Virus record (IMG/VR): IMGVR_UViG_2563366867_000008
Length of the DNA stretch: 23,271 nucleotides
Direction: 5' to 3' (one strand)
Source of the DNA: a virus
Taxonomy: Duplodnaviria > Heunggongvirae > Uroviricota > Caudoviricetes
The notes under the pieces were generated by a model. That model worked only from the letters and a program-made list of their open reading frames with translations. It ran no database searches and had not been told where the DNA came from. This document shows positions 917 to 8,680 of the stretch, in pieces. A program made the translations under genes and the position numbers. Every line of letters starts with the position of its first letter. Within the stretch, counting starts at the first letter, position 1.

Positions 917-1195
917 TCATCCGTTCTGGCTGACTAAATCCTGTACTTCCCGAACCGTCTGCTCAAAACGTTCAGTCTCCAGCTCAACGCCAATTGCACG
1001 ACGCCCGAGCGCCAGTGCCGCTTTCACTGTCGAACCCGACCCCATGAAAAAATCTGCAATCAGGTCACCCGGACGACTGCTAGCGCTGATTATCTGCTGC
1101 AGCATTTCTGCCGGTTTTTCGCACGGATGTTTCCCGGGATAGAACTGCACCGGTTTATGCGTCCAGACATCGGTATACGGCACCTGCGCCGTCAC
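917..1195 (-). pseudogene. DNA methyltransferase remnant (C-terminal SAM-binding half only)
   Basis: 92-aa ORF with HPCEKP...DLIADFFMGSGST motif typical of beta-class N6A/N4C MTases; no DPPY-containing N-terminal half; GTG start; frame runs upstream into the tR' hairpin with no ATG. Confidence 0.5.
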
Positions 1196-1346: not shown

Positions 1347-1742
1347 TTACTTTTTTAGCAGCCAGTCGTCCATCTCCAGTCTTACCCCCAGCACAGACAA
1401 ACATCCGTCAATAAACCCTTCGGCTATCTGCATCTCAATTCGTATTGCTTTTTCGCTTTTCTTTCTCGTCCTGGCTATCTGTCTTTTTGATATTCGCAAC
1501 AAATAATGAGCAATGAGAAGCGAATACTCCTCAGGTTTTTTCTGCTTCAGACGAGCAAGACAGTTTTCAATGATAAGTCCGTCATCATCGCAGCAGGCCG
1601 GACGTGGTTTAGTGGCAGATGGTAAAAGTCCTTTGAATCCGGCAGCGATCGGAGAATAGTCCACCCCGGTGTTACCACTTGCAGCCCATGCCCCCCAGCG
1701 TTCAAGAACCATCTGAATATCACGCATCAACTTTCTCCACAA
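1347..1742 (-). CDS. Late antiterminator Q-like protein
   Basis: 131 aa; resembles small Q antiterminators of lambdoid phages as I remember them; sits immediately upstream of the tR'-like terminator and tRNA trio. Confidence 0.55.
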   Translation of the reverse strand: MWRKLMRDIQMVLERWGAWAASGNTGVDYSPIAAGFKGLLPSATKPRPACCDDDGLIIENCLARLKQKKPEEYSLLIAHYLLRISKRQIARTRKKSEKAIRIEMQIAEGFIDGCLSVLGVRLEMDDWLLKK

Positions 1743-6494: not shown

Positions 6495-6685
6495 GGACGC
6501 ACCTCCGCCGTAGTTACGTATTTAACCGGGCTACCTTTCATTGAGATGGTTTCACACATCTCTGCCGCTTTCAGTTCCGCTGTTTTTCTGGATTTATAGC
6601 GACGGTGCCAGACAGATACATCCGTGCGAACTGATACATCGTTTCTGTATTCCGTAGTGGAGATGATGATTTCGTAACTAATCAT
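6491..6685 (-). CDS. Hypothetical protein
   Basis: 64-aa ORF translationally coupled on both sides. Confidence 0.4.
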   Translation of the reverse strand: MISYEIIISTTEYRNDVSVRTDVSVWHRRYKSRKTAELKAAEMCETISMKGSPVKYVTTAEVRP

Positions 6686-7245
6686 GGGCGAACCTCCTTG
6701 TCAGAACCATTCAGCCTAGAATCAACAAGTGCAGCGCCAAAAACAGCATCACCAACACGGTCGTACAGTTTGCTAGCCAGCGGAGATTCAACGGCCTTAA
6801 GCATTGGATAAAGCTGGCTTGTCCAGATTTGATGGATTTCACGCAAATGCAGGTATACGCCTCTGGCGTTTCGTGCGACAGCTGACATATCAGACGCATC
6901 GGCACCTGATAAACTCTTCTCCATCAGGTTAAAGGCGTTGATGTATGCCTCTTTGAACCGGGCAGCACGTTTACCCGTGAAACCCATAGCAAGAAATGCA
7001 AAACCGTCTCGTGTGATTTGATAGCAAGGGAGCTTGCGTGTACCGCCGTTCGGTTGATTTACCGAAATCGATGTCTCCGCAAAATTGCGGGCACAAAACT
7101 CTGGAGAACAATCCAAAATGCGAATCTTTTTCAGAACATCGTCATGACGTTTAGAGAAGAAGTCAGCAACAGCCAAAGAAGATGTAACAGCCTGACCATC
7201 AACGATGGCAATTTCAGGTTGAGAGAGGGTTGGGAGAGTAGTCAT
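6682..7245 (-). CDS. Rha-family phage regulatory protein (second copy); start uncertain
   Basis: Rha-like motif IAIVDGQAVTSSLAVADFFSKRHDDVLKKI begins ~10 aa after internal Met at 7245; the longest ORF extends to 7548 but that 100-aa extension covers a hairpin-rich, terminator-like region. Confidence 0.6.
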   Translation of the reverse strand: MTTLPTLSQPEIAIVDGQAVTSSLAVADFFSKRHDDVLKKIRILDCSPEFCARNFAETSISVNQPNGGTRKLPCYQITRDGFAFLAMGFTGKRAARFKEAYINAFNLMEKSLSGADASDMSAVARNARGVYLHLREIHQIWTSQLYPMLKAVESPLASKLYDRVGDAVFGAALVDSRLNGSDKEVRP

Positions 7246-7631
7246 AGTGACAGCCCCGGTAGTCAGTTTTTTAGAAAACTCACCACATGGGACGCCAATC
7301 ACAGAGGTGGTGAGACGTACAGGGTTGGCGTTACCGGAGACTACCGAACCCGGCCCGACCGAAGTCGGCCCTGTACGCCCCACCATAATTTGGGCGTAGC
7401 AATGCTCATGACACGAAAAAACCGCATGAGCGCGGTTATGCTCAGTAATCAATTTCAGGACGCCAATCCCGGCACCCGCTTTATAAGGTGCGGAGACAGT
7501 GTAACGTCCCGAAATTGCAGAATCAATATTTGGTCTTGAAATGATCATATAGCTGCTGATATCTTTAGAACTGTTCTTGGATGTTTCGGAGCCGTTTTAT
7601 GCGAAACAGCTCCCCGTTATTGATGTTGAGT

Positions 7632-7657
7632 GAGCCGGGTTACTCCCGGCTTTTTTT
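7632..7657 (+). terminator. Plus-strand rho-independent terminator (orphan) immediately 3' of the first Rha gene stop
   Basis: Stem GCCGGG-ttact-CCCGGC followed by TTTTTTT on plus strand; on the minus strand the same hairpin is boxB-like (6-bp stem, 5-nt loop). Confidence 0.55.
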
Positions 7658-8364
7658 CACCGCTGCCAACCAATAACCTGAAATAACCCCATTTTCGGGT
7701 GATACCAGCGAGTCCCTCGCGGTTCTGCTTCCTCCATAACCCGATAAAAAGCAGCCATAAACGGTTCCACAGCAACAATTGCGCGACGTGACAACAATCC
7801 GTCCGGCGTCATGAACTCATGGGTGTCTGTAGGAATCTGATAGGCGTTCACCAGATTGCGGCATTTATCATCTGACAAACCGGTTTTTGCTTTCAGTTGG
7901 CGATATCCGGCATAGCCCTCACGAATAGTGCCCTTTTTAATTTGCTCGACTGTTTCAGCAACGTGGCTGACTTTTTCTTCCACCTGAGTGATCCGTTTCT
8001 GCTGACGAACTGCTTCAAGAGCCATCGCGGCAACCATTTCGATTTCGCTCATTGGCTTACGGATCTGTTCTTCCAGTTCGCGCCAGCGATCTACCAGGCG
8101 AGCAGTGAATTCAGGACAGAGCTGTGCGACGACAATGATGCTGTCGCGCTTACCTTGTTCTCCTTCAAACAGGTAATGCTCATATTGAACTTTAAAACCT
8201 AAGTTATTGATTCTTTCGGAAACCTCAATTTGAGGAGACCGGACAACGCCACCTTTGGCTAATGTTTCAATAGTGCGTTTCACATTGTCATGACGTTTAC
8301 CCACCAGCTCTGCAATTTCAACGCTGGTCATGGATGCTTTGCCGTTAAAAATTGCGGTGTTCAT
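7657..8364 (-). CDS. Rha-family phage regulatory protein (antirepressor-like)
   Basis: 235 aa; N-terminal MTSVEIAELVGKRHDNVKRTIETL Rha signature; strong RBS AGGAGA 8 nt upstream. Confidence 0.8.
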   Translation of the reverse strand: MNTAIFNGKASMTSVEIAELVGKRHDNVKRTIETLAKGGVVRSPQIEVSERINNLGFKVQYEHYLFEGEQGKRDSIIVVAQLCPEFTARLVDRWRELEEQIRKPMSEIEMVAAMALEAVRQQKRITQVEEKVSHVAETVEQIKKGTIREGYAGYRQLKAKTGLSDDKCRNLVNAYQIPTDTHEFMTPDGLLSRRAIVAVEPFMAAFYRVMEEAEPRGTRWYHPKMGLFQVIGWQR

Positions 8365-8588
8365 TGTTGGTCTCCTGTGGGCTTGTCATCTTCTGTATTC
8401 GCTAGACTTGGGTGTGTATATGGAATGCTCGTATCCAGATGACAAAGAATGGCAACATCCTCCGGAACACCTCGCGTTTTCCACTTTCCAACACCTTGAC
8501 TGCCACGAGGCCTTCCTTTCTTTGGGAACCTGCGACCAATAGCGGCATTGGTTTTAAATTGAATTTTTAATATTTCATAAAGGGTCAT
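8361..8588 (-). CDS. Hypothetical small basic protein in the cro position (doubtful)
   Basis: 75-aa ORF, ATGA overlap with Rha gene, weak RBS, low-complexity K/R/G/P-rich composition; no HTH recognised. Confidence 0.25.
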   Translation of the reverse strand: MTLYEILKIQFKTNAAIGRRFPKKGRPRGSQGVGKWKTRGVPEDVAILCHLDTSIPYTHPSLANTEDDKPTGDQQ

Positions 8589-8599
8589 TCTTTAGTCTC

Positions 8600-8680
8600 A
8601 CACCAGATACTTTGTTATCCAACGATGTTAACCACAGGAACCCAAAGTATCAAGAAATTCTGTTACTTTAGTATCAACAG
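8600..8680. promoter_or_regulatory. Right operator/divergent promoter region (OR-like)
   Basis: AGTATCAA half-sites at 8646-8653 and 8668-8675, inverted GATACTTTG at 8606-8614; lies between the cI-like start and the minus-strand early operon. Confidence 0.6.

Follow-up and report, generated by a model that had tools for sequence, protein, structure and literature searches.

A P4/P1-type RNA immunity cassette probably nested in the 'ash'/Rha-family gene of a lambdoid prophage, next to a candidate plus-strand small RNA

The closest described relatives of the element treated here are the RNA-based immunity region of phage P4, the immI region of phages P1 and P7, and the isrK region of Gifsy-1. 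In P1 and P4, the C4-type RNA is excised from the leader transcript by processing, with RNase P acting at its 5' end. In the anti-immunity system of the phage-plasmid N15, Ravin and co-workers are said to have found in 1999 that a small processed RNA, named CA, controls antA, and the leader of the antirepressor operon reportedly gives rise to a small RNA which controls either premature termination or antirepressor expression. Our element occupies positions 7548-6682 on the minus strand of the IMG/VR virus record IMGVR_UViG_2563366867_000008, a stretch of 23,271 nucleotides (nt) that we call the window and that is a lambdoid prophage. Its leader lies in a hairpin-rich segment of about 400 base pairs (bp), which an earlier first-pass annotation of the same DNA had pointed out between two genes of the Rha type.

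For P4, Mageeney et al. (PMC10111431, citing Sabbattini et al. 1995 and Forti et al. 1999) place the CI RNA within gene eta and state that read-through can give a truncated product, Kil; in the same account, only transcripts of an upstream promoter give rise to full-length Eta, and it is this translation that prevents termination. In Gifsy-1, the isrK promoter drives expression of the antirepressor-like gene anrP, whose long transcript is translationally silent (Hershko-Shalev et al. 2016, PMC4825925). [quoted passage not shown] The activation is explained in that paper by direct pairing of IsrK with the mRNA, and the system is compared with seqA/CI of P4, while the terms 'phage P1', 'RNase P' and 'immI' do not occur in its main text (PMC4825925).

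We read 7548-6682 as a member of this P4/P1/Gifsy-1 family of RNA 'second immunity' modules, built as nested genes in the manner of P4 eta and kil, and we give this reading a probability of about 0.8. The hairpin-rich stretch is thus a well-known kind of phage switch and brings nothing conceptually new; what may be new is a short, unannotated plus-strand RNA gene predicted beside the switch. The parts of the module, in the order in which a minus-strand transcript would carry them, are as follows.

7548-6682, minus strand: long open reading frame (ORF), 288 aa, with an 'Ash' leader (aa 1-101) in frame with a Rha-family regulator; counterpart of P4 eta.
7526-7498, minus strand: putative internal promoter TTGATT-17-TACACT, with a predicted transcription start at ~7491.
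7491-7415, minus strand: IsrK/seqA-type leader RNA, 77 nt (Rfam RF01394).
7466-7460, minus strand: a1 (UUGGCGU), in the loop of IsrK hairpin 2, complementary to a' and covarying with it across loci.
7450-7440, minus strand: b1 (GAUUACUGAGC), which forms 11 pairs, G-U included, with b' in the C4 loop and covaries across loci.
7437-7416, minus strand: intrinsic terminator of the short IsrK-type RNA, AACCGCG-CUCA-UGCGGUU followed by U6.
7386-7384, minus strand: in-frame AUG at the 5' edge of C4, homologue of the first start codon of Gifsy-1 orf45.
7384-7306, minus strand: C4/CI-type antisense RNA, 79 nt (Rfam RF01695, fold and covariation).
7349-7339, minus strand: b' (GUUCGGUAGUC), specificity element in the loop of C4 hairpin 2.
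7331-7325, minus strand: a' (ACGCCAA), specificity element in the 3' junction of C4.
7314-7279, minus strand: a2 target hairpin (CUCACCAC...GUGGUGAG), with a2 (UUGGCGU, 7298-7292) in its loop.
~7264-7254, minus strand: b2 (GACUACCGGG), overlapping the Shine-Dalgarno sequence of ATG 7245.
7245-6682, minus strand: nested short ORF, 187 aa, the Rha-family regulator, starting with ATG 7245-7243; counterpart of the P4 kil start.

The C4 model of Rfam (RF01695) matches 7390-7303 on the minus strand over its full length (model positions 1-87), with 82.3 bits against a gathering score of 45. The matched RNA has a closing helix of 17 bp, a UUCG hairpin, a second hairpin whose loop holds b', and a 3' junction that holds a'; its core is the 9-bp inverted repeat around a UUCG hairpin that had been noticed in the first-pass annotation (CGTACAGGG at 7316-7324 and CCCTGTACG at 7369-7377, with GGCCGACUUCGGUCGGGCC between them). 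Structure prediction and covariation, proposed there as a check, gave a clear outcome. The 79-nt element at 7306-7384 folds at -47.2 kcal/mol (z -5.0), none of 200 shuffled sequences folds as well, and the minimum-free-energy fold agrees with the Rfam structure. Among 46 unique homologues, 97.1% of the pair cells are paired, and compensatory double changes occur in 13 of the 27 pairs. At the 5' boundary of C4, the same AAUUAUGGUGGGGCG is found in the window, in Gifsy-1 and in P1; the conserved boundary itself reads AAUUAU and, directly across it, GGUGGGG, and the position of the AUG at 7386-7384 is consistent with the Gifsy-1 numbering (A107/AUG119-121).

Upstream of it, the isrK model (RF01394) matches 7491-7415 with 59.3 bits against a gathering score of 50. 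Two Rfam families thus exceed their gathering thresholds here, and the hairpin-rich segment is indeed a region of regulatory structured RNA. The IsrK-type leader begins with hairpin 1; hairpin 2 follows and exposes a1 in its loop, then come b1 as a single strand and an intrinsic terminator, and the predicted fold shows all three hairpins. The IsrK-type RNA ends directly upstream of the C4-type RNA, an order shared by Gifsy-1 and P4. The putative internal promoter is the positional homologue of PisrK in Gifsy-1, of P1c4 (formerly P51b) in P1 and of PLE in P4; more than 40 loci, which differ upstream in at least eight ways, retain its motif, and its predicted start at ~7491 coincides with position 1 of the isrK model.

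The two RNAs are linked to the downstream start codon by complementarity. Viral contigs were scanned with a 15-mer of the C4 5' boundary, identical in P1 and the window, and this gave 94 unique true leaders carrying 39 different C4 specificity segments. Both a' and b' are hypervariable, and at each locus a1/b1 as well as a2/b2 carry the complement of that locus's own a'/b'. Over the 39 variants, the mean duplex energy with the downstream targets is -29.1 kcal/mol for cognate and -18.3 kcal/mol for non-cognate combinations (upstream targets: -29.3 versus -22.2 kcal/mol), and the cognate downstream target ranks best of 39 in 30 of the 39 cases. The compensatory covariation links sites up to 200 nt apart.

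The last of these targets, b2, lies on a ribosome-binding site. It overlaps the Shine-Dalgarno sequence GGGG (7257-7254), 8 nt ahead of ATG 7245, and the series of b2, Shine-Dalgarno sequence, about 8 nt and ATG is kept in essentially all related leaders, whatever the downstream gene encodes. The ATG, which is codon 102 of the long ORF, is a genuine start with a Shine-Dalgarno sequence of its own, and the Rha domain begins only after this internal methionine (Phage_pRha, aa 122-211), just as the first reading of the sequence had it. The other target, a2, is displayed in a hairpin whose 5' arm doubles as the 3' arm of the helix that closes C4; every group has such a hairpin, with a different stem in P1 (CCUGC/GCAGG). 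In the window it is the 8-bp stem CTCACCAC/GTGGTGAG, followed by UUUUCU on the minus strand, that had been reported at 7281-7316. The stem exists, but its position was off by 2 nt, the true site being 7279-7314 (fold -13.9 kcal/mol, z -2.4). We considered this hairpin as an intrinsic terminator as well; the U-run that follows it is not kept among relatives, and it is therefore read as presenting a target and not as terminating transcription.

In the viral contigs of the set (L005-L124; for example L009, L011, L026, L038 and L117), a' and b' are combined in many ways, one b' being found with several a' and one a' with several b', and this pattern looks like modular exchange of specificity determinants. 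One contig, L060, carries two complete C4 modules in tandem (7025-7039 and 7894-7908), ~870 bp apart, one with the specificity of the window and the other with that of L009.

A different interpretation had been offered in the first-pass annotation, namely that the segment contains a nut/put-like antitermination site followed by a tR1-like terminator that acts on early rightward transcription, and that the hairpin behind the first Rha gene is a boxB. It is true that the region lies in the early rightward operon and holds hairpins and a sense-oriented terminator, and that the hairpin at 7634-7650, with a GC stem of 6 bp and a loop of 5 nt, looks like boxB. Nevertheless, each minus-strand hairpin finds its place in the C4 model, the isrK model or the hairpin that presents a2, and covariation backs these assignments. 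This includes all the hairpins at 7250-7500; a put site of the HK022 type would be a two-stem RNA that acts in cis to modify RNA polymerase and recurs in the leftward operon. The U-tract of the 7634-7650 hairpin is on the other strand, and the sense (minus) strand has none. A second CCGGG-N5-CCCGG was sought in the whole 23-kb window; the only further hairpin of this form, at 423-437, is unrelated, and there is no second copy, the leftward operon included. Among relatives, the loop of the hairpin differs in sequence and length (AGUAA, UAGUGA, CAGUGG, GAGUGA), and Pfam recognises no N-like protein among the leftward ORFs, which is a weak negative. A nut site of the lambda type would call for a boxB repeated in both early operons, a constant loop and an N-type Pfam match, and we found none of these; antitermination of this sort is very improbable here. 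The more general idea of termination control, which belonged to the same proposal, was borne out.

Indeed, every structure named in the first-pass annotation is present in the sequence, with small coordinate offsets. The CCGC/GCGG hairpin with T6 placed near 7420 is AACCGCGCTCATGCGG plus T6 at 7437-7416 (minus strand), scored as terminator-like and identical with the IsrK terminator listed above. Between 6600 and 8700, a terminator scan gave 7 terminator-like sites against 2.6 +/- 1.4 in shuffled sequences. With two Rfam families above their gathering scores, the structures exceed chance. A tRNA-like element in the UUCG region was also considered and rejected, ARAGORN finding only three tRNAs, at 627-876.

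The leader is an open reading frame as well as a structured RNA. In 41 unique E. coli-type leaders, the frame of the long ORF has no stop between the -35 hexamer and ATG 7245, whereas the other two frames have stops at 16 and 22 distinct sites (132 and 241 occurrences), many of them within the a/b patches that change freely. An in-frame ATG is provided by no fewer than six unrelated upstream contexts, six or seven codons ahead of a conserved ATT GAT TCT, several of them with a GGAGGTG Shine-Dalgarno sequence or an ATGA overlap with the preceding gene. Substitutions are spread flatly over the three codon positions of the leader (45/55/59), whereas the Rha part shows a third-position excess (109/87/217). 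The frame is thus kept open while the peptide is not conserved as a protein. An open frame maintained without purifying selection on the peptide fits, by analogy, the eta/kil model of P4.

Several observations weigh against reading the locus as a complete module of this kind. The isrK fold taken alone is unexceptional (z -1.7), and the Rfam c4-a1b1 model stays below its threshold (23.9 versus 46.7). The internal promoter fits the consensus at only 8 of 12 positions and is therefore not listed by a promoter scan. ATG 7548 has no recognisable Shine-Dalgarno sequence and lies 108 nt past the stop of the upstream Roi-like gene; because of this spacer, translational coupling of the P4 eta type, for which related loci have the ATGA overlap or the GGAGGTG sequence that the window lacks, cannot operate here. 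BLASTP finds no similarity between the leader peptide and P4 Eta, nor between the Rha-type protein and Gifsy-1 AnrP, so the shared part is the RNA cassette and not its cargo. Finally, members of the Gifsy-1 and P1 groups have this frame closed or shifted out of phase, hence read-through translation is not universal in the family.

On one hand, part of these observations would also suit a leader that is purely non-coding, in which case the 288-aa ORF would be a chance product of GC-rich structure and only the 187-aa protein would be made. The missing Shine-Dalgarno sequence and the 108-nt gap at ATG 7548, the closed or shifted frames of P1 and Gifsy-1 and the lack of BLASTP similarity to Eta all go in this direction, as do leader substitutions without third-position bias and the presence of a promoter and an intrinsic terminator inside the ORF. 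On the other hand, stops are absent from the one frame even in the changing patches; the chance that 38 sites all miss one frame would be ~(2/3)^38 = 2e-7 if the sites were independent, and they are not fully so. Moreover, in-frame starts with good Shine-Dalgarno sequences recur in the unrelated contexts mentioned above, in-frame fusions to N-terminal domains occur, spacer variants of only 71-73% identity all keep the ATG of the long ORF, and translation of P4 eta and Gifsy-1 orf45 is a published precedent. A leader that only works as RNA is thus unlikely. The first-pass annotation was right in placing the upstream 100 codons outside the Rha domain, but treating them as merely non-coding is too simple, as the frame is open and matches Phage_ASH, and its view of the long ORF as spurious is probably wrong for this subgroup.

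The opposite view can be taken too: the upstream 100 residues might be an ordinary folded 'Ash' domain and the hairpins incidental to it. Pfam PF10554 (Phage_ASH) does match the long ORF at aa 16-111 with 42.8 bits (cut-off 26), RefSeq names the equivalents 'ash family protein' or 'Rha family phage regulatory protein', and the frame is open. Yet two Rfam families exceed their thresholds on the same bases, the compensatory covariation is massive and reaches over up to 200 nt, and the substitutions are flat over codon positions, unlike those of the adjacent Rha domain. In P4, Phage_ASH matches the old 'cI' ORF (59.7 bits), and there it covers the bases matched by the Rfam C4 model, identified in PMC10111431 as the CI immunity RNA. 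We therefore regard an ordinary protein domain as hardly tenable. In both cases the Pfam match (window 7246-7548, minus strand; P4, 8168-8584, minus strand, in L125) overlies isrK/seqA, C4/CI and the targets, and Phage_ASH is largely, in effect, the translation of an RNA cassette.

The leader occurs in other arrangements. In L010, L011, L012, L043 and others, an extra N-terminal domain of ~100 aa precedes the Ash leader in one continuous frame, giving ORFs of 381-387 aa that start ~461 nt upstream of the C4 boundary. The cargo beyond the cassette varies as well, being either of the Rha type or, as in the Stx2d phage L126, a 'hypothetical' protein of 220 aa. A second leader group (L017, L031, L032, L047, L051, L074, L075 and L103) has the promoter TTGCCA-17-TACATT; its leader frame continues as a 205-aa ORF, the gene behind b2 and the Shine-Dalgarno sequence starts in another frame, and the two long ORFs overlap out of phase for ~300 nt.

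How the P4/P1-type module would be transcribed, processed and translated, and what the Rha-family protein would do, we infer as follows. In the lysogen, the internal promoter at 7526-7498, constitutive in the P4 and Gifsy-1 models, would yield the short IsrK-type RNA and some read-through, and C4 would be cut out of the transcripts that read through the IsrK terminator. The b' loop and the a' junction of C4 would then pair with a2/b2, ribosome entry at ATG 7245 would be blocked, and the Rha-family regulator, a putative antirepressor as judged from annotation, would not be made. Pairing with a1/b1, either on the nascent leader or on the free short IsrK-type RNA, would set the balance; this might work through early termination, as reported for P4, or through titration of C4 and consequent translation, as with IsrK over-expression in Gifsy-1. 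Upon induction, the early rightward promoter would be derepressed, and transcripts through the Roi-like gene would carry ATG 7548, while AUG 7386, from which a 234-aa form could start, would be carried by read-through RNAs too. Ribosomes crossing the whole leader would override the targets, and the 288-aa form would be produced despite C4.

Compared with P4, the order of elements (PLE, seqA, CI RNA and seqC inside eta/kil) is the same as in the window. The isrK model matches seqA with 60.8 bits and the C4 model matches CI, Phage_ASH lies on both leaders, and the promoter, putative in the window, is internal to the long ORF (8812/8767-8168 in P4). In both, a nested in-frame start follows a target and a Shine-Dalgarno sequence, and the P4 kil context, AGGAGGCTGCCATCATGGC, is almost identical to that of several E. 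coli-type loci. The differences are that P4 has a short Kil tail where the window carries a Rha-family regulator as cargo, that the window module sits in a lambdoid early rightward operon, upstream of replication genes, and that its long ORF is uncoupled from the upstream gene by the 108-nt spacer. In addition, termination that silences the replication operon is the outcome reported for P4 only.

With the immI region of P1/P7 (c4, icd, ant), the window shares the layout of a1, b1, the terminator-like hairpin, c4, a2 and b2 behind a promoter that is putative in the window, besides the identical C4 boundary. In P1, b2 lies on the ribosome-binding site of icd, and the P1 record carries the annotation 'repression of icd ant translation'. 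Specificity changes in the same manner in both, by covariation of a'/b' with the targets, as between the P1- and P7-like variants. Unlike P1, the window has no icd-like small gene, and b2 guards the start of the regulator itself; in P1, a TAA in b' closes the frame through c4. The P1 promoter is controlled by C1 via an annotated operator.

In Gifsy-1 (L002; 2565-2648 and 2674-2750, minus strand), the Rfam C4 model finds a match directly downstream of isrK, in a segment shared with orf45. The isrK match (79.3 bits) and the C4 match have the order and spacing seen in the window, the start of orf45 is the AUG that borders the 5' edge of C4, and the C4 match corresponds in position to STnc1160. 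By contrast, the Gifsy-1 module sits after a Q-like gene, orf45 and anrP, which overlap by AUGA, are read in different frames, a TGA at -2 closes the frame ahead of orf45, and AnrP is unrelated in sequence to the Rha protein of the window. The arrangement of the window is that of the 287-aa orf45-anrP fusion of Shigella dysenteriae.

Between the two Rha genes, the plus strand holds a candidate transcription unit of its own, made of these parts.

7536-7565, plus strand: promoter-like site TTGAAA-18-TGaTATCTT, with its -10 at 7560-7565, back to back with the internal minus-strand promoter.
7588-7613, no strand assigned: spacer hairpin GGAGC...GCUCC.
7632-7657, plus strand: canonical intrinsic terminator, stem of 8-9 bp and T7; predicted 3' end of the RNA.

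The terminator, GAGCCGGGTTACTCCCGGC plus T7, adjoins the stop of the Roi-like gene and is scored as terminator-like, as the first-pass annotation had claimed. That annotation had also suggested a plus-strand RNA ending at ~7657, which is plausible given the terminator; the boxB-like reading of the same hairpin is not supported. The odds are roughly even that the terminator ends a dedicated small RNA begun at 7536-7565. More specifically, we tentatively propose, at a chance we would put just short of even, an undescribed small RNA gene of ~87 nt (~7572-7658), antisense to the junction of the Roi-like and Ash-Rha genes on the early rightward transcript. A hairpin, an AU-rich single strand and a terminator with a U-tail are the usual layout of small regulatory RNAs. 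For the segment 7570-7660, the predicted fold has -30 kcal/mol (z -3.7). Three variants of the spacer are known, which are only 71-73% identical and differ by indels, with similar spacing of the promoter-like site, the hairpin and the terminator. The promoter-like site reads TTGAAA-18-TGgTATTTT in the other two variants; the hairpin differs in sequence from variant to variant (GGAGC...GCUCC, CTGC-ATAAA-GCAG and ACTTC-ACAAAAG-GAAGT); the stem of the terminator and its T7-8 are invariant around a variable loop. The predicted RNA is accordingly 82-93 nt long across the variants. The unit 7536-7657 is present in 236 of 5426 E. coli genomes, and genomes of O157:H7, O145:H28 and O45:H2 have the spacer with 100% identity.

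It is also quite possible, if somewhat doubtful in our view, that the terminator does not end a small RNA at all and is a relic, an insulator against antisense transcription into the Roi- and cro-like genes, or a 3' stabiliser of a processed Roi-like mRNA. The terminator stem never varies, so no covariation is available for it, and the promoter-like site shares bases with the conserved start of the long ORF; this overlap may be the cause of its conservation. No Rfam family covers the unit (the best, sroD, reaches 24.5 bits against a threshold of 50, and this score is driven by the terminator), there is no homology to lambda oop (local alignment score 16, shuffled sequences 15.6 +/- 2.1), a literal search for the hairpin sequence gave no match among the papers of the library searched, and no RNA at this position is described in papers on svsR, the Pas small RNAs and Hfq-CRAC in enterohaemorrhagic E. 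coli. Against such an alternative stands the joint retention, in three diverged variants, of the site TTGAAA-18-TGn-TAT[CT]TT, a changing hairpin and the terminator with T7-8, together with the z-score of the predicted RNA. In its layout, the proposed small RNA would resemble lambda oop, as it would run leftward over a short distance from a promoter of its own to an intrinsic terminator, located between early regulatory and replication genes, with a 3' end that abuts or overlaps the end of the upstream rightward gene. It differs from oop in having no sequence similarity to it and in overlapping only the stop codon of the Roi-like gene and not the 3' part of its coding region.

The switch and the candidate RNA gene stand in the following setting.

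8625/8700-9356, plus strand: LexA/S24-type repressor.
Plus strand, with the repressor: gene with a helix-turn-helix (HTH) domain.
8588-8361, minus strand: small gene in the position of cro.
8364-7657, minus strand: Rha/Roi-like gene upstream of the long ORF, with an N-terminal Phage_pRha domain.

The last of these is named 'Roi' or 'DNA-binding protein' in annotations of related phages. The neighbours 7657-8364 and 6682-7548 (both minus strand) thus each carry an N-terminal Phage_pRha domain, and the RNA cassette would govern the second only. Behind 7548-6682, the minus strand continues with two small ORFs, an O-like initiator, a DnaC-like gene, a DnaB-like helicase, a DUF968/HNH gene, the Q antiterminator, three tRNAs and the STnc100 RNA. 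Q and the RNA genes past it lie at 362-551, 627-876 and 1347-1742 (minus strand); the anticodons of the three tRNAs are CAT, TCG and TCT, and STnc100 is matched with 133.6 bits. This is the late-promoter-proximal arrangement of Shiga-toxin-type phages. An ORF of 92 aa at 917-1195 (minus strand) matches the N6_N4 DNA methylase family in its C-terminal part only (profile positions 137-220 of 221) and is probably a truncated or split methylase gene. The 2-kb region 6600-8650 has matches in 1749 of 5426 complete E. coli genomes, and DNA matching it is also found in Shiga-toxin-converting phages.

For annotation, these results mean that the gene known as 'ash' or 'Rha family' carries two unannotated RNA genes and a putative internal promoter. 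For the literature, the correspondence of STnc1160 with C4 joins the work on IsrK of Gifsy-1 to the older work on P1 and P4. If the plus-strand RNA is real, it could decide whether transcripts begun upstream bring ribosomes to ATG 7548, on which bypass of the C4 block would depend, and it would be a third RNA layer in the immunity switch; alternatively, it could act in trans on host targets. As for the prophages themselves, lambdoid prophages of E. coli carry the P4/P1-type RNA immunity cassette widely; in them it precedes varied regulator cargos and comes in dozens of mutually exclusive specificities, and these specificities could govern cross-induction and cross-immunity among co-resident prophages.

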